Source of the DNA: a virus | Reading direction: 5' to 3' (one strand) | Length of the DNA: 64,000 nt | Virus record (IMG/VR): IMGVR_UViG_3300033153_008203 | Location: 32,001-96,000 of that record | Position numbers and translations under genes: made by a program | The notes under the pieces: model-generated | What the model was told of the DNA's origin: nothing | Seen by the model: only the letters and a program-made list of their open reading frames with translations | The model's database searches: none | In this document: piece by piece, positions 14,171-26,733 of the stretch | Numbering within the stretch: position 1 is the first letter of the stretch | Layout: each line of letters begins with the position of its first letter

Positions 14171-14385
14171 TAGATGCTTTCTCCTTCAGCAGTAGTTTCA
14201 ACTAACGCCTTAAGAGCAGAGATAGCTCCTGCCTTTATAGTAATTCTCTTTTCTATGTCCTTCATTGTCTCATAGCACTGCTTATATTCGTCTCTCAAAG
14301 CGCCTATGTCTTCTGCATACTTCTGTATCTCTGACGAGATTGTATCGCTACTTATTTGTTCTATTTTTTCTTTCTTTTTTGCCAT
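14170..14385 (-). CDS. Small coiled-coil protein
   Basis: AAAGGAG RBS; heptad pattern. Confidence 0.7.
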   Translation of the reverse strand: MAKKKEKIEQISSDTISSEIQKYAEDIGALRDEYKQCYETMKDIEKRITIKAGAISALKALVETTAEGESI

Positions 14386-14421
14386 GTTTATTTCTCCTTT
14401 GTTATTTGTTTTTATATATAA

Positions 14422-14450
14422 ATTATATCATAAGTTTTGTTTTTTGGAAG
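14422..14450 (-). promoter_or_regulatory. Extended -10 sigma70-type promoter for the 14385-11164 genes
   Basis: Minus strand CTTCCAAAAAACAAAACTTA-TGA-TATAAT; the downstream ATATAAAAACAA leader resembles that of P2. Confidence 0.55.
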
Positions 14451-15237
14451 GCCCTACAACTGGCAACATTTGCTCATATTTCAAATCGTTTAATGGAATA
14501 TTTTCCGGTGCTCCTGGGCCAGGATGTACCTGCTCTATCTTGTTTTTGTTGAGCTGATTTTGAGTTCTAAATTCAGTAAGCATTGTTTGAAAACCATCTC
14601 CTAAAGACCTTACTTCTTCTTTAAGTTTTTCAACGCAATAATCATACAATTCAATATCTACACTATTGGCCTCTTTTACAATACTAATAATGTCACTGTC
14701 AATGTCATCAGCCTTAATCGTATTATGCGAAGGGTTTTCTATTACGTAATAAGGAATGCTCCATGCTAATTTTTTTCTTATTAACAATATTGACTCGTCA
14801 AACATCTCTGTAATCCCTACAACAGAGAAGCTATTATTTAAGTTATGGATTGCTAGATCGATATCGACTGTTCCGCCTGACAACATTTTTGTTTGAAGGT
14901 TACTGCCTTGTTCACGAGTAGTTAGAGACTTAAGCCATTCCATATCTTGCTTGCCTGTTCTTGCTGTATGCCTATATGTTGAGAGCACTCTCTCGATTGG
15001 GTCTCTAAGCATCGTAATATAGGCACATGGACCTTTAATGTATTCGTGCATTCCGAAATACTGATGACCAGAAATAACTTCAACACTATTAAGAGTATCT
15101 ATTCCGTATATATCTACAAAGCCGCTATTATTATGTAATCCTTCTATCTGAAGCTTTCTTTCGAGACCATATTCTCGATCTATGATCATCCTTAATGTTG
15201 TACCAGCAGTCTTTGGTATGTGTAGGTTTATCAGCAT
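14428..15237 (-). CDS. Sulfotransferase (family 2-like)
   Basis: 5'-PSB loop LHIPKTAGTT, SGH, 3'-PB LRDPIERVLSTY, VGITE, N..DIELY; true start probably ATG 15237. Confidence 0.87.
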   Translation of the reverse strand: MLINLHIPKTAGTTLRMIIDREYGLERKLQIEGLHNNSGFVDIYGIDTLNSVEVISGHQYFGMHEYIKGPCAYITMLRDPIERVLSTYRHTARTGKQDMEWLKSLTTREQGSNLQTKMLSGGTVDIDLAIHNLNNSFSVVGITEMFDESILLIRKKLAWSIPYYVIENPSHNTIKADDIDSDIISIVKEANSVDIELYDYCVEKLKEEVRSLGDGFQTMLTEFRTQNQLNKNKIEQVHPGPGAPENIPLNDLKYEQMLPVVGPSKKQNL

Positions 15238-15247
15238 GCCAGTCTTT

Positions 15248-15838
15248 CTACTTCTTCGTAAAGTAGCACTGATATTTCGCGCTAACTGTAATCTCTTCTG
15301 GTTTATCACTTAAGAATTCCTCCAAAGACTTTTTAATACCAGGACAACCTTCCCACTCATAGTCGTCAAACACTATGATTCCACCTTTAACCATCTTTTG
15401 ATAAAAGTATTCCAGAACATCTACATTACATTGGTATAAATCTACATCAGAATGAACAAGGCTAAATTTTTCGCTAACCATTTCATCTACAGTTTCTGGA
15501 AACATCCCTTGATAGAATCTAGCATTACTACACTCATCCAGTGCACTCTTAACGCCATCTAACGATGTATCATTGAAGTCTCCCTCTTTGTGCATATCAA
15601 TTGAAGGATCATCTTTTGCAGGCATCCCTTGAAACGTATCAAACAAATGCACAAGCTTGTCTGGACAAGACAACGATAACAGCTTTGCTGTACCACCCTT
15701 GTATACTCCTATTTCAGCAATGTCACCGTCTAGTTTATTGGCTTTTTGTACTAGCTTAAATAGCGCTTCACACCTGTCCTTAGATACTAGTGTAAGCCCG
15801 CTCATTTTCTCATGTATTTGTTCAAACTTTTTTGACAT
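15248..15838 (-). CDS. TylF/MycF/NovP-family sugar O-methyltransferase
   Basis: GDIAEIGVYKGG, FDTFQGMP, GMFPET, HSDVDLYQ, GGIIVFDDY. Confidence 0.9.
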   Translation of the reverse strand: MSKKFEQIHEKMSGLTLVSKDRCEALFKLVQKANKLDGDIAEIGVYKGGTAKLLSLSCPDKLVHLFDTFQGMPAKDDPSIDMHKEGDFNDTSLDGVKSALDECSNARFYQGMFPETVDEMVSEKFSLVHSDVDLYQCNVDVLEYFYQKMVKGGIIVFDDYEWEGCPGIKKSLEEFLSDKPEEITVSAKYQCYFTKK

Positions 15839-16422
15839 TATATTACTCCTTTAAGTACAAGCTCATCCTTGACTCTATTAAAATCTTGCTCTATGTTATC
15901 TGTTTTCCAGAAAAAGAAAGCTCCTTTACCGTAATCCTTTTGATGCCATTCAGGACAAACCACCTTAGCATATCCAGGAAGATCTTCAGGTAACCATCCA
16001 CTCTTATGTGTATCTGGATCACTATAATCTTGAGACACCATGAGATCACCAAGAGGAGTAAAGAGTATCATCTTACATATAGATAGACTATCCATTCTTC
16101 TTAATAATTTTTGTCCATCTTCCTTGTTGAAATGCTCTATAGCATCCATAGCAAAACACATGTCATACATCCGCTTGCTTACTGCCTCGTGATCTCCCAA
16201 TACATCGGTCACATAGAATTCTCCTACATCTGAAGTAACGCCTCTATCGTCATCTATTATATCTACAAAAACCTTACTAGCAAAATCTAAATGCCTAGTG
16301 AATGGAGCGTGGCAACAACATAGATCTATCATACTAAGACTAGACGTATTGTCTCCAACTATAGCCTTTAGTATGCTACTATATGTGTCTCCTGTTCCTT
16401 GTCCATGTACGATTATTTCCAT
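15838..16422 (-). CDS. Class I SAM-dependent methyltransferase-like protein
   Basis: MIDLCC, FVDI, YDMCFAMDAIEHF, LFTPLG, HKSGW. Confidence 0.7.
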   Translation of the reverse strand: MEIIVHGQGTGDTYSSILKAIVGDNTSSLSMIDLCCCHAPFTRHLDFASKVFVDIIDDDRGVTSDVGEFYVTDVLGDHEAVSKRMYDMCFAMDAIEHFNKEDGQKLLRRMDSLSICKMILFTPLGDLMVSQDYSDPDTHKSGWLPEDLPGYAKVVCPEWHQKDYGKGAFFFWKTDNIEQDFNRVKDELVLKGVI

Positions 16423-17198
16423 TATTTTCTGAGCCTCTCTACTAAATTGTGAGCCACTTTTGGATGAGGAATAGTAAGCTCTATAGTATCCTCTATGTCC
16501 TTGCATTTCCATGGACTAAACTCTTCGTTATTCTCTTTCATTGCAACAACCCTATGATCAGGGGTGCTATCTGGACCATGAAACCATGACTGCATATCTA
16601 TTACCTTATCAACAAAAATTTTCTTGTCTCTTACCATGCCATAATGAAAGATCTTAATCTTATCTGTATGATCTTTATTGCAACTTGGTAGCTGAATTGA
16701 TTCTGCATCACTATACGTATTATATTGAGTTTTTGCTAATCTCATTACTGCATCACTACATGGCTTAGTATTATTTACTATATCAAATCGTATATACCTA
16801 TCGACATCACCGTAAAAATTATATCTTCTACACATGTATCCTTCTGGTCCCTTATGATTTATGAGTCGCCTAATATGATCGTAACTTTCTTCATGTAACA
16901 CTTCATCAGCCTGTAGCATAAAATGCCAATCAGTTTTTAAATTACTCTTTACCTTATTGGCTAGAATAGAAAGCCTTTCATAATTATTAGCACACTCCCA
17001 GTCAAGACCCTCTATAACAGTTATGTTAGAGTGTTCTCTAGCAAGCTTTCTTAAAATGTCTAACGTACCATCAGTACTCTGTGCATCTCCAACTACAACC
17101 TCATCACATACTGGTACAAGGCTCAGTATTGCCTCTTCTATACAGTAGTCAAGCTCAATTGCATTACGTATAAAAATAGATCCGCCCAAACTATTCAT
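16422..17198 (-). CDS. Glycosyltransferase family 2
   Basis: CDEVVVGDAQSTDGT, WHFMLQADE (DxD-like), IFHYG. Confidence 0.87.
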   Translation of the reverse strand: MNSLGGSIFIRNAIELDYCIEEAILSLVPVCDEVVVGDAQSTDGTLDILRKLAREHSNITVIEGLDWECANNYERLSILANKVKSNLKTDWHFMLQADEVLHEESYDHIRRLINHKGPEGYMCRRYNFYGDVDRYIRFDIVNNTKPCSDAVMRLAKTQYNTYSDAESIQLPSCNKDHTDKIKIFHYGMVRDKKIFVDKVIDMQSWFHGPDSTPDHRVVAMKENNEEFSPWKCKDIEDTIELTIPHPKVAHNLVERLRK

Positions 17199-19920
17199 GT
17201 AAAGCCTCCACAACCTTCTCGTACATCATATCAACAGTAACATTCTCTATGCACTGTTCTCCGTCAGCTCTGATACATGCGCCTGTTGCATTTTTGTCTC
17301 CTTTTTTCCAATGATGACAGCCTATACATACAAGGTCTTTTACATTGACTCCTATAACATTGTCATTTACGATCCTGTACTCAGGGTTTATGCACCCAAA
17401 AAATACTACGCTAGGAACATTCTGGCTTTGTGCAATATGAAAAGGAGAGGAGTCTATTCCGATAAAACATCTTGCCTTTTTTATCACACTACCAGTTTGA
17501 GCAAAACTAGTCTTACCTCTTAAATCAATATCGCATGTGATACTAGGAGTTCCATCAGTGCCTATCAAAACTACACTGTACCCTAAAGACTTTACTTTTT
17601 TCGCTAGCTCATCAAATCTGTCTTGTCTCCAATTACGTCCAGCCCAAGCTGTTGGGCCAGTATGAAAGACAACATAGTCTCCGCTTACATCAACATTATA
17701 GTTTTCGGTACTGAAGCTTATATCTCCAAGTTCTTCTTTTTTAAGATCACATGAATCAGCGTAAGCATCAAGAACGTGTATTTCTTGTATGTTTTCATAT
17801 GAGTCATCTAAGTCATAAAATATGTCGTACTTGTCTCTATTGATACTTGTAACACACTTATGTACATGCTTGTTCTCTGCTAATATTTCTGCACATTTTG
17901 TTATTACCGTTATATTGCTAAGTGGATACTTGTTCTTAAGGCCTTCTATAACAGGGGTAGCTAGAAGAACATCTCCTATGGCGCCTAATCTTTGAACGCC
18001 AATCTTGTATTTGAATGTCCTGTTTTTTAGATAATGTTTCCATCTGTCTAGAAAGTAGTCTCTATTTTTTGCCTGATATCCTCTAAGATCTTCCTTGATA
18101 GTTGACGATGTCTTCTCTCTGTGATGCACTATTGGTACATCTATTGTTGCAATATTCCATCCTTGCTCTCTAAGCCTTAGAGATAGATCGCTATCTTCTT
18201 GGTATGCAAAATGGAGATTCTTTTCGTCAAACAGGCCATATTCATCATATATTTTTCTTGGCATTACCATACATGATGCTTCTACATACTCTGTAGCATG
18301 TCCATGTGTTCCACATCCATCATTGCTTATCGCTGTACACGTGTCGCTCACACCTATTTGAGCAAGTGTTTCGTCAGACTTAAGCTTGTCAATCATGGTC
18401 TTTGCCCAATCTTTGCACAACGTCATATCATCATTAAGCAGACAAATGTATTCGCCTTTGGCTTTTTTTGCTATCACATTATTAGGCTCTAAAAAACCAG
18501 AATTCTTTTTATCTTTAATTAGCTTTATACTTTTATTCTTCATGCATAGATCATCAAGATATGCTGACACTGCACTGCCTTCAACCCTAGCATTCTGATA
18601 GATTATTAGCTCAAAATCTATTGTATATTTTAATACATCATGAATAGTGTTTCGTAAGTAACCAAGGTTGTCCATTGTTACCATCAAAATAGACAGATTG
18701 CATTTTGTTTTCTTGGCTTTTTTTGTAATCCTTCTAACAGGAAAAACCTCATTCTTAGAAAAATCTAAAAACTTGTCTTTTCTGCTATATGTTATGCCAT
18801 AAAAGTAGTCTATATTCTTAAGCTTAGACATGTCATTACTAGTTCCTACATTCCATTCGTCAAGCATGAATAGCGTAGCGTTAAATACATCGTCTATCTC
18901 TAAGGCTTTCATACAATAGTAGTGGTTCTTACATGCCTTATACCAACATGGAGCGCAAGCAAGATCTTTTTGCCATACTGCTATACAGTTCTTAAACCAA
19001 TTAATTCTTGACTGAGGATGAGTAGACCCAAAGATAGAAACTATTTTACAATCTAGTGCTCCTGCCAAATGAAGAAGGCCTGAGTCATGAGCTATAACTA
19101 AGTCAGACTGTTCCATTAAAGCAGCGATGCTTCTTATATTGTACTCGCTTATATTAATACAGTTTACAAGAGAGCTCCATCTATCCTTGTATTCACCTAC
19201 ATTGAAATCATGTATCAAAAATACTAGAGAATTATCATGCTCGTGCATCTCCTTGATAAACTCTATCATTGTATCTCTTGGCCAGTTTCTTCTGTCTGCA
19301 AAACTTCCTGGCTGTATAACTATGAATCTGCTTTTTCTAACTTTCTTGTGATCGTCTAACCAATCCTTTGCCCACTTACGCTCGTCTTCCTCTACAGCGT
19401 ACACGCATTTACCATCGTCTATGTCTATACCTACATAGTTGCCCCACATTGTTTGTCTATCTTTTGGTGCACCTAGTATGTATTCGTCTCTTACTCCTAT
19501 AGCTGTTAGGTCTGCATATATGTCGAATGCTTCTTTCTTAATCTGTTGATAAGGAACTAGTTCGTCTATGTAAGGATTGTTTTGTAATACGTCAAAAAGT
19601 ACCCCGCCAGAATATTCCTTAGTAGTACCATAAGTGATATGACAATCAGGATACTTTTCCTTAAGTGCCTTAAATGTTGGAGTCACCATAAGAGCGTCAC
19701 CAAGCCCACCAAGAGTTCTAACAAGCGCAAACCTTGGAGGTCTGCCATGCATAAGACCATCTATCTTACTAAGCACACTAGAATTTCTAGGTCCTTTAGC
19801 ATCTTTTGCTTTTTGGTTTGCTTCTATAGCTGCATTAAGTCTTTGTGTTTTAATGTCTTGTCTTCTCCTGTCTCCATGACCAGTAAGCATTACTCCACCA
19901 TGAAATTTTCCTTTTGCCAT
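17191..19920 (-). CDS. Tri-domain glycosyltransferase GT9-GT2-GT9
   Basis: GT9 no. 1 RTLGGLGDALM...HDSGLLHLAGA..IFGST; central GT2 NSGF...LLNDD...EDSDLSLR; GT9 no. 2 RLGAIGDVLLATP...IDSSPFHIA. Confidence 0.9.
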   Translation of the reverse strand: MAKGKFHGGVMLTGHGDRRRQDIKTQRLNAAIEANQKAKDAKGPRNSSVLSKIDGLMHGRPPRFALVRTLGGLGDALMVTPTFKALKEKYPDCHITYGTTKEYSGGVLFDVLQNNPYIDELVPYQQIKKEAFDIYADLTAIGVRDEYILGAPKDRQTMWGNYVGIDIDDGKCVYAVEEDERKWAKDWLDDHKKVRKSRFIVIQPGSFADRRNWPRDTMIEFIKEMHEHDNSLVFLIHDFNVGEYKDRWSSLVNCINISEYNIRSIAALMEQSDLVIAHDSGLLHLAGALDCKIVSIFGSTHPQSRINWFKNCIAVWQKDLACAPCWYKACKNHYYCMKALEIDDVFNATLFMLDEWNVGTSNDMSKLKNIDYFYGITYSRKDKFLDFSKNEVFPVRRITKKAKKTKCNLSILMVTMDNLGYLRNTIHDVLKYTIDFELIIYQNARVEGSAVSAYLDDLCMKNKSIKLIKDKKNSGFLEPNNVIAKKAKGEYICLLNDDMTLCKDWAKTMIDKLKSDETLAQIGVSDTCTAISNDGCGTHGHATEYVEASCMVMPRKIYDEYGLFDEKNLHFAYQEDSDLSLRLREQGWNIATIDVPIVHHREKTSSTIKEDLRGYQAKNRDYFLDRWKHYLKNRTFKYKIGVQRLGAIGDVLLATPVIEGLKNKYPLSNITVITKCAEILAENKHVHKCVTSINRDKYDIFYDLDDSYENIQEIHVLDAYADSCDLKKEELGDISFSTENYNVDVSGDYVVFHTGPTAWAGRNWRQDRFDELAKKVKSLGYSVVLIGTDGTPSITCDIDLRGKTSFAQTGSVIKKARCFIGIDSSPFHIAQSQNVPSVVFFGCINPEYRIVNDNVIGVNVKDLVCIGCHHWKKGDKNATGACIRADGEQCIENVTVDMMYEKVVEALHE

Positions 19921-19922
19921 TC

Positions 19923-20909
19923 TTATTCTTCCTCAGCTAAAGACGCACATATAAGAAGCCCGTTGGCAACTGCAGTAAGAGGATCGTTAGCATGTTTTAC
20001 CTCAGACACTTCAACAGGAAGAGGATTTCTCTCCAGTGATTCTCTAAACTTGCCTATAAAGTTGCCTGCCAAGGATGTTCCGCCTGACACCACAATAGGA
20101 ACAGGATTCTTAAAGCTAGGTAAGTCATCGGACTTGGATAGCCTACCAGCTATATTCTTAATAACATAATCTATTAGGTTTCCATAATATATGGAGATCG
20201 CTTCTTGTATTCTTCCTTCAGGACTAAGTAGATCAATACCTTTTTCTTTCTCGGTCTGAACCTTACTTGCTGTAAGATCAAGTGCAGTGGCAACGCTCTG
20301 ATCTATCCAGTCTCCTGATCTTGCTATTGAGAACTGAACTGCAGGAACACCCATGATTCCAACTGATACGTTAATCATACCTGCGCCACAACTGATTGCT
20401 ATACCAGTAAGTCCATCGTCCAAGAGTTCTGAGTAGGCAATAGCTTCAGCTTCATTAAGAGAGCATGGCTCGTACCCAAGATCAGAAAGAATCTTATTGA
20501 ATACGTTCTCGTGATATATGATGTCAAAGTTCTCGTCTACAGGCGCAGCCGGCACTGAGTAGTAACACTTTTCTCCTTTTTTAGAGGCCTTACCTATGGC
20601 CTTTTCAATAATGATTTTTATAACAGGAAATGCATCTTTTTCTTTCGGAGAGATTACACCTTTACTCATTGGTCTCTGAGCATTTGCGTTAAACATATTG
20701 GCAAACTCAACTGCTTCGTTACCTATCACAAGGAGCTTCCCATCCTTAGCAAGAAAATTAGCTTTAACTTGCTTTAGCATCTTTTGCCTGAAAGGATTGT
20801 CTTCTATTTCAAAGAACGAATCCCGGATACTTGTAAATTCCGTGTTCCCATCTTTATCTAGACGTCCTCCTACGATAAAGCCTGTTCCGATATCTAATGA
20901 TTTTCCCAT
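19923..20909 (-). CDS. Actin-fold ATPase (volactin-like)
   Basis: Phosphate-1 LDIGTG, RPMSKG, SVPAAP, connect-1 LNEAEAIAY, phosphate-2 ISCGAGMINV, GDWID, adenosine VSGGTS, DPLTAVANG. Confidence 0.87.
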   Translation of the reverse strand: MGKSLDIGTGFIVGGRLDKDGNTEFTSIRDSFFEIEDNPFRQKMLKQVKANFLAKDGKLLVIGNEAVEFANMFNANAQRPMSKGVISPKEKDAFPVIKIIIEKAIGKASKKGEKCYYSVPAAPVDENFDIIYHENVFNKILSDLGYEPCSLNEAEAIAYSELLDDGLTGIAISCGAGMINVSVGIMGVPAVQFSIARSGDWIDQSVATALDLTASKVQTEKEKGIDLLSPEGRIQEAISIYYGNLIDYVIKNIAGRLSKSDDLPSFKNPVPIVVSGGTSLAGNFIGKFRESLERNPLPVEVSEVKHANDPLTAVANGLLICASLAEEE

Positions 20910-21307
20910 TACGTGTCTCCCTTTATTTTTTTAAGTTTATTCATTTTTTCTTTAATGCTTTCGCCTTTAGTTGATTCTATATTATCTAAATTGACAGAGA
21001 AATCCTCTGACTCAGTAGGATCTACGAAGCTCGATTCAAGTTCTATTGTATCAGAGTCTACAGGTTGTGGAACCCCTGCGTTACTCACTACTATTTGTTG
21101 TTGTGGGATATTTTTCGATATTTCTTGAGCCATCTCTTTAGCCATTGCTTTGGCCATCTCAAGCATGTCTTCTTTGGTGAAGCCTTCTGATTTCTTGGGA
21201 GATTTTTTGTGTGTGATTGTTGGCATGATTGGCCTACCTTTTGACGCAGGCCTATTAGAGCATACTACGCCACCTTTTAGATATACTTTCGGATATGATG
21301 TATTCAT
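20909..21307 (-). CDS. Hypothetical protein coupled to the actin gene (putative adaptor)
   Basis: Stop overlaps the actin ATG; central helix, acidic linker and amphipathic basic C-terminal helix. Confidence 0.65.
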   Translation of the reverse strand: MNTSYPKVYLKGGVVCSNRPASKGRPIMPTITHKKSPKKSEGFTKEDMLEMAKAMAKEMAQEISKNIPQQQIVVSNAGVPQPVDSDTIELESSFVDPTESEDFSVNLDNIESTKGESIKEKMNKLKKIKGDT

Positions 21308-21313
21308 GTTTCA

Positions 21314-21639
21314 TTACTGTTGTAAGCGTCTAGATGCGTTCCAAGTAGGCTCCCCAGTTAACCCTACCGACCCAGTCTTTGATCCTTGAATCCATGGCCT
21401 TAATACTTGATGCCAACTTAATGTACCAGAGGAAGCATCGTATAAGTTCATCCAAAATGGGAGGTTATTGGAGTTGACCCTTCAAGTGACGTTAAGTCAA
21501 CTTTTATTAACCCTGTCTGAGAACCAAATCTAGCAGCTACAGTTGAAGCGACACCAAAATTCCAAGTAGGAACATTAGAATAAAGATAAGTATCTTCAAT
21601 AACACCACCGTCAACGCCATCTTCAATAGTTACTTCCAT
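21314..21639 (-). pseudogene. Frameshifted, truncated DNRLRE-like paralog of 26053-26733
   Basis: IEDTYLYSNVPTWNFG matches LEDNYLASNVPTWNLG; after TGA at 21448 another frame continues MNLYDASSGTLSWHQVLRPWIQG, matching WYKVLRDWGEG. Confidence 0.6.
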
Positions 21640-21992
21640 TAAGCTATTGTATCTCCAGATATAACAACTAATTGAGGATCTATTTCATGAACATAGCTAT
21701 CGCTAGCTCTATATATTTGAACAGATAAGTAATATGTTCCGTATGTTAAGTTTTCTCCTGCTATAGCAGCCTCTTGAGCAGTAGAGCTCAGAACAAGATT
21801 AACTGTTCCTCCATCCACTTCTGCATCTGCTACAACGCTAGCTATAATAGGTACTGCTTGAGTACCTAATGTTCTTGACGGCTTATCATATAGTCCAGCA
21901 GTAGCTGTGAAACCGTCTAATGAAAATGGAGCAGTAACCGTTACTACTGGTGTCCAAGTATTTCCTAATCTAAAATTTAGTTGTGTTGCCAT
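21639..21992 (-). CDS. Putative accessory virion protein (Ig-like beta-sandwich)
   Basis: Beta-rich, GTYYLSVQI; coupled in operon. Confidence 0.55.
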   Translation of the reverse strand: MATQLNFRLGNTWTPVVTVTAPFSLDGFTATAGLYDKPSRTLGTQAVPIIASVVADAEVDGGTVNLVLSSTAQEAAIAGENLTYGTYYLSVQIYRASDSYVHEIDPQLVVISGDTIA

Positions 21993-21997
21993 AATAA

Positions 21998-22159
21998 TTA
22001 CTCCGGATCACAAGTTATAGTGTATGTTATTTCGTCTGACTCTATGACAACTGTAATGGCTGGACTGTCAGCAAAAGTAGTTTCAATCTCACCATCAACA
22101 GGAACAACTTGTCCTGCTGTGCCACTACCGCCTATTCCTACTGGAAAAAGATTTGCCAT
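21998..22159 (-). CDS. Small hypothetical protein (MANLFPVG...)
   Basis: TAATG coupling to the upstream stop. Confidence 0.5.
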   Translation of the reverse strand: MANLFPVGIGGSGTAGQVVPVDGEIETTFADSPAITVVIESDEITYTITCDPE

Positions 22160-24958: not shown

Positions 24959-26053
24959 TTATCCTATTTTATTTCCAGTTTCTTTTAAGCTGTGCTGACC
25001 TGTATCGAATCCCGTGCCTTTTATCTCGTCTAAAGATGCTTCAATTGCCAAGGTGTCAAGCTCTATATCTATACTGTCGATGGTATCTTGTATTGACTTG
25101 AGAGTTTCATCAGTCCAACCAGCACCCTTTATCTCATCAAAAATATCTTTTAATGCAGACAATCCATATGCTGTGTCCTCTAAAAGGATATTAGTATTTT
25201 GTATACCAACGTTATCAGCAGGTATATACAGTTGTTCTAGATGACCAAAGAATATTGAATCTATCCACAACTCATGAGTTGGCCACGATGTAGGTTCGTG
25301 AGTAATACGAATTCTTGCAGTATATGGAGCGCCGCCAGCAGAATAGTAGTCTGCTACAGTCCCAGGAATATTAAAGTCAACAACGATATCCTCATTTGAA
25401 TTAGGAATATCTCTAGCACCAGCTCTGATATTGTCCCACTGAGCTAAAGTATAGTTCCAGATTAATACTTCAACTTGATGACCAGCAGAGCCTAAATATC
25501 TACCTATAAAGTGGAAAGAAGGATGCAATTCATCAATGTTTTGAAAATCGAAATCTATTATAAAACTACCATCTTCTGCAAATTTCATATACTGCTGATT
25601 GACAGTCTCAATGTCTGAAATCGTACCTTCTATTACAGAAGAGTCTTGCACAATATCATACGCATGAGGATAGTGACCCATTATATAAGGAGCTGATGCA
25701 AGTCTAGTCTTTATAATCACCATAAGCTCTTGTAATGTTTCGGTTGAAAAGCCTCCGCCCATAATAGTGTCTAATGTAGCTTCTTTGGCTACTGTACTAT
25801 TTAGTGCTATGTCTCCGTCTGCTATACCAAAGATCCCTATTGCAAAATTGTCAGGAGTAGTTGTCTCTTTAATGTAGAAATCAGTATCTTCAGTTATGTT
25901 TGGATTTGTAAGCCTATAAAAACCATTTCCGCGCTCTACTAATGTCATGCCTGTTTGAGACACGTCTGTATTGTCTGATATCTTCTTACACCAATCGATA
26001 GTGAGATCTCCAAATACTAATCCAGTACTTGTTAGATTTATTATTGCTTCCAT
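24959..26053 (-). CDS. Putative accessory virion protein
   Basis: Acidic; repeated I-GxG(F/W)xxETL segments. Confidence 0.6.
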   Translation of the reverse strand: MEAIINLTSTGLVFGDLTIDWCKKISDNTDVSQTGMTLVERGNGFYRLTNPNITEDTDFYIKETTTPDNFAIGIFGIADGDIALNSTVAKEATLDTIMGGGFSTETLQELMVIIKTRLASAPYIMGHYPHAYDIVQDSSVIEGTISDIETVNQQYMKFAEDGSFIIDFDFQNIDELHPSFHFIGRYLGSAGHQVEVLIWNYTLAQWDNIRAGARDIPNSNEDIVVDFNIPGTVADYYSAGGAPYTARIRITHEPTSWPTHELWIDSIFFGHLEQLYIPADNVGIQNTNILLEDTAYGLSALKDIFDEIKGAGWTDETLKSIQDTIDSIDIELDTLAIEASLDEIKGTGFDTGQHSLKETGNKIG

Positions 26054-26733
26054 CAATATATTCTCCTAGATCGCTGTGGCGAATTTATGCTAGCTATTTT
26101 TCTATTTCCATAATACGAATTTGAGTTCCATCCTGGTGCTGCTTCCGTATATTCCATATAAAAATAAGGTTTATTTCCGGCTACTGTTTGAGAAGATCTC
26201 CATGCTATCCTCGATGGATTCTCAGGCCTTAACAAGAGTCCAAAGTTAGTTGATGAGTTGTCAATCCAATCTTGAGTTAGCGTATTAGTTACAACTAGAT
26301 GTTGGTCTGAGGTTACCCCTGTTATAGAGACCGTTCCATCTGCAACCGATTCCCTGTCTGGGTCTGCCCCTTCTGTACCTTCACAACCTGCGGTATCCCA
26401 TAAAACGGAAGGTCTTATCGCAAAATCCCAATCCGAAGCACCTACTTCTGGCCCGTCTATCTCACTACCTTCACCCCAATCGCGGAGAACTTTATACCAA
26501 GCTGCACTCATAGGTACTGTGGTTGCAGAATGCACATCAACCCCAAAATGTGCTGTGGTTACGGTGACATCTGAATAAGCAGTCAGTATTATTTTAAATA
26601 TCGCATTGTATCTAGTACCGTCTACACTAATTGGTGAGACTTCAGGCCTACCTCCTAGATTCCATGTTGGCACGTTACTGGCTAAGTAGTTGTCTTCTAG
26701 TATTCCACTATCGTCATCAATCGTTACATTCAT
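26053..26733 (-). CDS. DNRLRE/disaggregatase-like domain protein
   Basis: EDNYLASNVPTWNLGG...VLRDWGEG...WDTAG...QDWIDNSSTNFGLLL...NKPYFYMEY. Confidence 0.7.
   Translation of the reverse strand: MNVTIDDDSGILEDNYLASNVPTWNLGGRPEVSPISVDGTRYNAIFKIILTAYSDVTVTTAHFGVDVHSATTVPMSAAWYKVLRDWGEGSEIDGPEVGASDWDFAIRPSVLWDTAGCEGTEGADPDRESVADGTVSITGVTSDQHLVVTNTLTQDWIDNSSTNFGLLLRPENPSRIAWRSSQTVAGNKPYFYMEYTEAAPGWNSNSYYGNRKIASINSPQRSRRIY

Follow-up and report, generated by a model that had tools for sequence, protein, structure and literature searches.

A phage volactin and its conserved, predicted cleft-docking partner: a putative two-gene cytoskeletal module

What cytoskeletal filaments do phages encode, and what do such filaments bind? 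The phage cytoskeletons known before are the tubulin PhuZ and one prophage actin, AlpC. PhuZ is the tubulin spindle of nucleus-forming jumbo phages, for which no adaptor of the tail-docking kind is known. It is a phage-encoded cytoskeletal polymer used during infection (reviews PMC8314001, PMC7950403). In prophage CGP3, the adaptor gene alpA precedes the actin gene alpC and the two are co-transcribed; AlpA binds phage DNA at its own promoter, and alpAC is expressed early and tied to DNA replication (PMC4446434). Volactin entered the literature as recently as 2023-24, as a filament that acts in the cell shape of haloarchaea: in Haloferax volcanii, VolA (HVO_2015) forms dynamic filaments in vivo and has a role in cell shape and the rod-to-disk transition, and the volactin paper left its binding factors unknown (PMC10869688). 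A DUF7139 gene adjoins the haloarchaeal volactin gene (PMC12126565). Here, volactin appears as half of a conserved two-gene module in large phages, found on hundreds of viral contigs and joined to a short putative adaptor tail whose binding is directly testable. The module offers a handle on what volactin filaments bind, on how large phages organize infection without a phage nucleus, and on the origin of this actin family.

The stretch of DNA analyzed, hereafter the window, is 64,000 nucleotides long and comprises bases 32001-96000 of a linear, 145,069-bp IMG/VR virus record with a CheckV completeness of about 75%. From ~11.2 kb to the end of the window, almost every gene lies on the minus strand, in a block that encodes a baseplate wedge, several "virion structural" proteins, and tail-fibre-like proteins. 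Cultured-phage matches of the baseplate protein are only remote and partial, to Moorella and Bacillus 0305phi8-36-type myophages. Given this structural block and these matches, the source is a large, contractile-tailed phage, probably a bacterial one. Tubulin, tyrosine integrase, and ParA were not found in the 145-kb record, an absence that counts weakly because the record is ~75% complete. The features of the locus are as follows.

19923..20909, minus strand: volactin-family actin-like ATPase gene, 328 aa (from the ORF, the PF25216 match, and the AF2 model)
20909..21307, minus strand: gene of the partner, a putative adaptor, 132 aa (from the ORF, 18 relatives, and the charge layout)
20912..21052, minus strand: C-terminal domain of the partner (residues 86-132), conserved and predicted to dock (from the tail HMM and conservation)
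20917..20923, minus strand: AAGGGAG box of Shine-Dalgarno type, in the terminal part of the partner gene and 7 nt before the actin ATG
21308..21447, minus strand: non-coding gap of 140 nt, 5' of the partner gene, adjoining a truncated gene remnant

Both ORFs of the pair sit inside the co-directional structural block, a position that suggests late rather than early expression. After the stop codon of the actin gene come 2 nt and then the start of a gene for a 909-aa GT9/GT2 glycosyltransferase fusion. On the other side, the 140-nt gap may be the site of a start signal, with no signal detected there; a promoter and terminator scan across 14-27 kb returned nothing better than shuffles, and a minus-strand terminator was not found. 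The adjoining remnant, a 63-aa ORF at 21448-21639 on the minus strand, is the truncated N-terminal piece of a ~200-aa gene family. A full paralogue lies at window positions 26053-26733, and the remnant is 48-52% identical to the first 52-63 residues of two full copies (663-1271 and 1268-1873) in L002, the closest relative of the locus that was compared at the DNA level. The junction gains and loses cassettes.

The phage actin and its family

Is the 328-aa protein a volactin or an actin of another kind? The Pfam family Volactin (PF25216) matches it at E 3.7e-74 and 250.5 bits, against a cut-off of 35, over profile positions 1-321 of 321; a genome search gave the same result, and Volactin is the sole Pfam family reported for the actin at E 0.01 or better. 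NCBIfam returned only MamK, sub-threshold at 31 bits vs. a cut-off of 400. PHROGs gave no match for the actin or its partner, and no chain was detectable when PDB sequences were searched with the actin. Our scan of one genome per species yielded 299 volactin loci, and the chromosomal volactins of haloarchaea—several Haloferax species included—are 39-42% identical to the phage actin over its full length. Across a 71-sequence alignment, the phage actin keeps 31 of 31 invariant residues, among them D6, G8, T9, E153, S173, G175, G177, G276, and G277; the phosphate-1 motif DxGT, Glu153, the phosphate-2 GxG, and the adenosine-motif GG are thereby all present. Volactin aligns with an MreB at E 6e-7 over 247 columns (hhalign), and in the MreB alignment Ser173 stands where MreB and actin have the canonical phosphate-2 Asp. 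This serine is the state of the whole family, haloarchaeal volactins included, and is therefore no mark of a degenerate phage copy.

The AF2 model of the actin reaches a pLDDT of 94.3 and a pTM of 0.91. Its best fold matches in the PDB—MreB, MamK, BeeR, crenactin, and actin—are all filament formers, with TM-scores of ~0.6-0.7 at 15-18% sequence identity. Compared with L002, the gene has a dN/dS of 0.03, at saturated dS. The phage protein thus belongs with the volactins, has a confident actin fold, and is under purifying selection. A preliminary description of this DNA had placed the gene with volactin rather than with MreB, ParM, or FtsA on the strength of four signature strings; all four (FANMFN..RPMSKG, YSVPAAPVD, FSIARSGDWID, and AISIYYGNLIDYVI) are present in the translation, and the Pfam score, the tree, and the distance of MamK below its cut-off bear the placement out. 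The further claim that every ATPase motif is intact needs one amendment: The invariant nucleotide-site residues are kept, but the canonical phosphate-2 Asp is, family-wide, a serine.

The closest kin of the phage actin are 14 clusters at 84-100% identity, all of 327-328 aa and on contigs of up to 189 kb; beyond them, identity falls to about 50%. In a quick maximum-likelihood tree rooted with two MreBs, these 14 clusters form one clade (SH-aLRT 99), the sister of which (SH-aLRT 96) is a group with Planctomycetota chromosomal copies, a set scattered across MAGs of unrelated phyla, and Halobacteria. IMG/VR lineages branch below both, under a root that is unsure because the outgroup branch is very long. 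As the earlier description had anticipated, the window actin groups with haloarchaeal volactins and away from MreB; all 108 volactin-family rows fall on one side of the tree and the 2 MreB rows on the other (SH-aLRT 100). Recent capture from a host was considered and rejected: The highest identity to any sequence outside the window clade is about 50-51%, and, as the phage sequences also form a clade of their own, we see no recent host copy.

How widespread are volactins among viruses? An alignment-based scan confirmed at least 566 IMG/VR contigs that encode one, some of them 0.3-0.46 Mb long, and HMMER, run in full against 1.84 billion representatives, gave 338 clusters at E 1e-30 or better. 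Among GenBank phages, volactin was found only in two uncultured huge phages. Our literature search, a 2026 jumbo-phage review included, returned no description of phage volactins; the actin family is so far unreported from phages, and an adaptor-docked phage volactin system appears in no paper that we found.

The family varies in architecture. Many volactins are 430-450 aa long (the long forms, P0015-P0086) and carry a conserved N-terminal extension of ~110 aa with the pattern ..G.RV.DAS.L....DPRR..GKK...PPP...LNK.FKKEF; a conserved Met after this extension, just ahead of the actin core, hints at two start sites. The IMG/VR contig of locus L104 (295,848 bp) is the same size as the longest contig of the long form P0026, so the long form comes at least partly from huge phages, and an "Altiarchaeales" MAG contig among the long forms may be a mis-binned phage. 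That the extension might be a fused partner was rejected, as hhalign of the partner against the extension alignments gave E 0.32; at L015, a long-form locus, a separate partner is encoded upstream all the same, and it ends DKLRRLRKLKGNK. A search for fused partner forms of 577-2000 aa found none, which is weak evidence. P0139-P0141 have a full actin core behind about 340 extra residues. In several ~700-aa representatives (P0147, P0160, P0181, P0202, P0205, and others), the actin is matched in two separated stretches (e.g., residues 2-176, followed by a more C-terminal portion); this split would be explained if the actin gene held an insertion, for instance an intein.

Volactins also occur in cellular assemblies. 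Planctomycetota MAGs (L020, L026-L032, and L036-L051) hold chromosomal volactin cores of 41-43% identity, some on Mb-scale contigs; each core closes an ORF that is 340-614 residues longer at its N-terminus, the DNA has 59-67% GC, and the extensions may be real protein or no more than open frames. A near-identical volactin lineage (L016, L017, L018, L021, L023, L030, L035, and L048) carries the MAG labels Omnitrophota, Elusimicrobia, Bacteroidetes, Victivallis, Nitrospinae, and Scalindua, and its upstream partner has 160-200 aa and ends ..EKEKSD.DK.V.L.K.I.KKG+K. The scatter of this lineage over phyla suggests a mobile element or mis-binned phage.

The partner gene and its pairing with the actin gene

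How firmly is the upstream gene tied to the actin gene? The TAA stop of the partner and the ATG of the actin overlap by one base (TAATG at 20907-20911), and this overlap, together with the AAGGGAG box, fits translational coupling as far as the letters can tell. In L002, whose actin is 88% identical, four unrelated genes totaling 2.1 kb split the partner from the actin; thus, strict coupling is not required. The inserted L002 genes are two ~200-aa paralogues of the window gene at 26053-26733 and, at L002 1929-2772, a GIY-YIG-type endonuclease gene and an 84-aa ORF. The segment has the appearance of a mobile insertion, one that breaks the module in two.

Co-occurrence across phage lineages was assessed with an HMM of the partner tail. 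It was trained on the C-terminal 55 residues of 14 ORFs that precede the actin gene in other phage lineages, with the window and L002 excluded. Run against the 503 six-frame ORFs of the window, it recovered the partner only (E 1.1e-4; next best 0.65). An ORF ends just before the actin gene in 73 of 80 further IMG/VR loci, and 49 of these 73 immediately upstream ORFs score at least 15 bits vs. 3 of 1074 other ORFs from the same loci; many of the remaining upstream ORFs end in a visibly related variant, DDAASALKALRK.... The upstream ORF, which had been put forward as a putative adaptor, is a conserved and co-occurring partner.

Ahead of this tail, the N-terminal part differs by lineage: one transmembrane helix in proteins of about 105-125 aa, a coiled coil of 250-330 aa with an N-terminal GGPRD motif, or, in the window lineage, a short basic form. 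A constant tail with lineage-specific N-terminal parts looks like an adaptor with a constant handle. Gene neighbors differ between lineages as well. One group of loci (L003-L010, L025, and L038), for example, has a ClpP protease gene before the pair and a gene for a CspA-like cold-shock protein after it, in the order ClpP, coiled-coil partner, volactin, CspA-like protein, and its coiled-coil partner bears the N-terminal motif YNK..GGPRD.Q.RQ. Downstream of its actin gene, L002 has a homologue of the window gene at 14172-13097, and the glycan block of the window (14172-19923) is absent. With that cassette missing from L002 and the neighbors differing elsewhere, nothing beyond the two genes is conserved as a unit, and the suggestion that the filaments may position the adjacent glycosylation enzymes is not supported.

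The partner protein has 18 relatives at 52-100% identity; their N-terminal halves vary, in contrast to a nearly invariant stretch of ~47 residues at the C-terminus. The consensus of this tail (residues 86-132) is D.IE.ES.F.DP...NLDNIE..G..I..K..KLK..KG, and the dN/dS of the partner is 0.10. For 7 of the 18 relatives, the longest contig has the same size as that of a volactin relative (2,245 and 3,996 bp among them), which suggests, short of proof, that the two share contigs. Charge is unevenly distributed, with a net +8 over residues 1-44, -10 over 84-116, and +4 over 117-132. A Met/Ala/Lys-rich helix is predicted at residues 45-65 and a basic terminal helix at 118-129, in line with the acidic linker and C-terminal helix noted earlier from the sequence. 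Modeled alone by AF2, the partner is mostly disordered apart from these two helices (pLDDT 65, pTM 0.21), and this low-confidence model was used for secondary structure only. No Pfam family scores above its cut-off; the nearest, DUF5832, was set aside at 21 bits (cut-off 26.7). Pfam, PHROGs, NCBIfam, and the AF2 model revealed no recognizable DNA-, membrane-, or virion-binding domain in the N-terminal part. The sequence has no long hydrophobic stretch, and tblastn of the partner against GenBank phages gave no match.

Predicted docking and possible roles of the module

Does the partner bind the actin? A complex model of the two proteins, of the kind proposed in the preliminary description, predicts that it docks, with a score of 0.78 vs. 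0.17 for the best of three controls. Solved complexes attained this mark in 58 of 80 cases and mismatched pairs in 2 of 110, a calibration that is rough because our own alignments were used. The model runs agree in at least 76% of contacts, with a partner pLDDT of at least 62. The predicted actin interface covers partner residues 102-129, and the tightest modeled contacts are those of partner residues 117-128 with actin residues 159-167 and 316-324. The MreB alignment assigns these actin segments to the helix that follows the catalytic Glu and to the C-terminal helix, both of which border the hydrophobic cleft that separates the halves of the actin fold. WH2 motifs bind in this cleft on actin, and the ParR tail does so on ParM; in the model, the tail helix of the partner lies in it too. 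Because ParM-ParR and actin-WH2 complexes have been solved, the score may partly reflect likeness to them. Actins also use the inter-domain cleft for longitudinal contacts within filaments, and conservation of the cleft alone is therefore no argument for adaptor binding.

We favor the reading that the pair is a two-gene phage cytoskeletal module, made of volactin filaments and a dedicated cleft-docking partner and acting late, and we give it a probability of roughly 0.58. By analogy with its characterized archaeal relative, the 328-aa volactin would most likely polymerize with ATP. The partner would be largely disordered, its conserved basic C-terminal helix and the preceding acidic stretch docking, in the model, into a cleft built from actin helix 153-167 and the C-terminal helix 313-327. 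Its N-terminal part—the basic 44 residues and the amphipathic helix—would tie the filament, or the end of it, to something else, for which DNA, membrane, and a component of the particle are candidates. Both proteins would be made together through the one-base overlap, within the long structural gene block, and the filaments would then probably act in the later part of infection. Polymerization, timing, and cargo are the parts of this scheme that we infer.

Since the cleft serves longitudinal contacts, a ligand placed there could cap or sequester rather than tether. The partner might then be an assembly regulator instead of a cargo adaptor—a protein that sequesters monomers, caps an end, or nucleates filaments after the manner of thymosin/WH2 proteins, or of ParR at the end of a ParM filament. 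A small, mostly disordered protein without a cargo-binding domain, whose predicted site is this very cleft and whose synthesis would be roughly coupled to that of the actin by the one-base overlap, suits such a role. However, the same tail is carried elsewhere by a transmembrane helix or a long coiled coil, which is more like an anchor or tether than a sequestering peptide, and the conserved basic N-terminal segment with helix 45-65 suggests a second binding function; we regard a purely regulatory partner as unlikely, if worth keeping in mind.

Could the module instead reshape the host, with filaments that alter cell shape, size, or division during infection? The only characterized family member acts in cell shape (PMC10869688), and Planctomycetota have chromosomal members on Mb-scale contigs. 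But the phage clade stands apart, without a recent host copy and at no more than about 50-51% identity to other sequences, and a phage-specific partner takes the place of the CdpA-like DUF7139 membrane protein that accompanies haloarchaeal volactin. Host reshaping is, on balance, improbable.

A role in segregating the phage genome, as ParMRC does for plasmids, would presuppose a plasmid-like carrier or pseudolysogenic state and a partner N-terminus that binds a centromere. The adaptor-plus-actin logic, with a tail helix modeled in the cleft as in ParR-ParM, is what such a system would have; the N-terminal 44 residues of the partner are basic (net +8), and AlpA-AlpC provides a precedent that binds phage DNA. 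The surroundings speak differently: Positions 19800-22100 hold only short two-copy chance repeats in place of an iteron or centromere-like array, Pfam reports neither ParM nor any other DNA-binding family for either protein, and the pair sits among structural genes. In other lineages, moreover, the N-terminus of the partner is a membrane helix and not a DNA binder, and—a weak point, given ~75% completeness—integrase and ParA were not found in the 145-kb record. Segregation thus appears quite improbable. We give very little credence to a non-polymerizing, enzymatic or chaperone-like ATPase with an unrelated small protein upstream, for although Ser173 replaces the canonical phosphate-2 Asp, that serine recurs in the aligned haloarchaeal volactins, a group that includes the filament-forming Haloferax protein, the best folds are filament formers rather than Hsp70s or sugar kinases, and the partner co-occurs far above background.

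Beyond the two-gene module as such, a wider and tentative proposal, possible but doubtful, is that volactin with a tail-docking adaptor is chiefly a virus-borne cytoskeleton, that the haloarchaeal and planctomycete copies are its cellular offshoots or its source, and that it serves a late step here. Behind this proposal are the 566 or more IMG/VR contigs, reaching 0.46 Mb, and the deepest position of phage-linked lineages in the MreB-rooted tree. If it is true, filaments tethered via the basic N-terminus of the partner would organize DNA packaging or particle assembly, and would give this myophage of roughly 190 kb an actin-based equivalent of the PhuZ spindle.

Comparison with known systems

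How does the module relate to the systems described so far? With H. volcanii volactin it shares the family PF25216, ~40% identity to Haloferax orthologues, the invariant residues including Ser173, and a gene order in which volactin comes right after a partner gene. Unlike the Haloferax gene, it is phage-borne, probably in a bacterial virus, and its partner is a 132-aa protein predicted to be soluble and disordered, whereas the neighbor of Haloferax volactin, HVO_2016, is a four-transmembrane, CdpA-like DUF7139 protein of roughly 300 aa. The upstream genes of haloarchaeal loci (Haloferax and Natronomonas) match PF23600, the CdpA-like DUF7139 family, at 125-145 bits, and Pfam finds no DUF7139/PF23600 domain in the window partner. 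For the phage volactin, a primary role in cell shape is unlikely. Several DUF7139 neighbors (L053, L062, L063, and L090) end in DDQ.AAL.EL+.Q...(acidic)...LVDR.+G.F, and the DUF7139 tail DDQTAALAELRKQ resembles, by eye only, DDAASALKALRK, a variant of the tail in phage partners; haloarchaeal DUF7139 tails received no significant score from the tail HMM (best 7.9 bits). Should this tail be the volactin handle, it would name a volactin-binding factor in Haloferax.

MreB, MamK, and BeeR are the closest solved folds, but at TM-scores of ~0.6-0.7 their sequences are only 15-18% identical to the phage actin. PhuZ is a tubulin rather than an actin, and this phage's 145-kb record contains no tubulin that we could find.

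AlpA-AlpC offers the nearest genetic parallel, a phage-borne actin preceded by an adaptor gene; in the window, a one-base overlap and an internal Shine-Dalgarno-like box are added. AlpC belongs to a different actin family from volactin, and the Volactin HMM found no match in a C. glutamicum control genome, the strain of which is uncertain. Furthermore, alpAC is early, whereas the window pair lies in a structural block, with no evident DNA-binding domain or site. ParM-ParR-parC, too, pairs an actin-like protein with an adaptor, and the C-terminal helix of ParR binds the cleft; for the partner this placement is a prediction, from a score that may partly reflect likeness to solved complexes. It differs in that the window actin is not of the ParM family, the gene order is reversed, and the pair has neither a ribbon-helix-helix domain nor parC-like repeats. 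By analogy, the phage module would work like the adaptor-plus-actin systems AlpA-AlpC and ParR-ParM while being a member of neither family.
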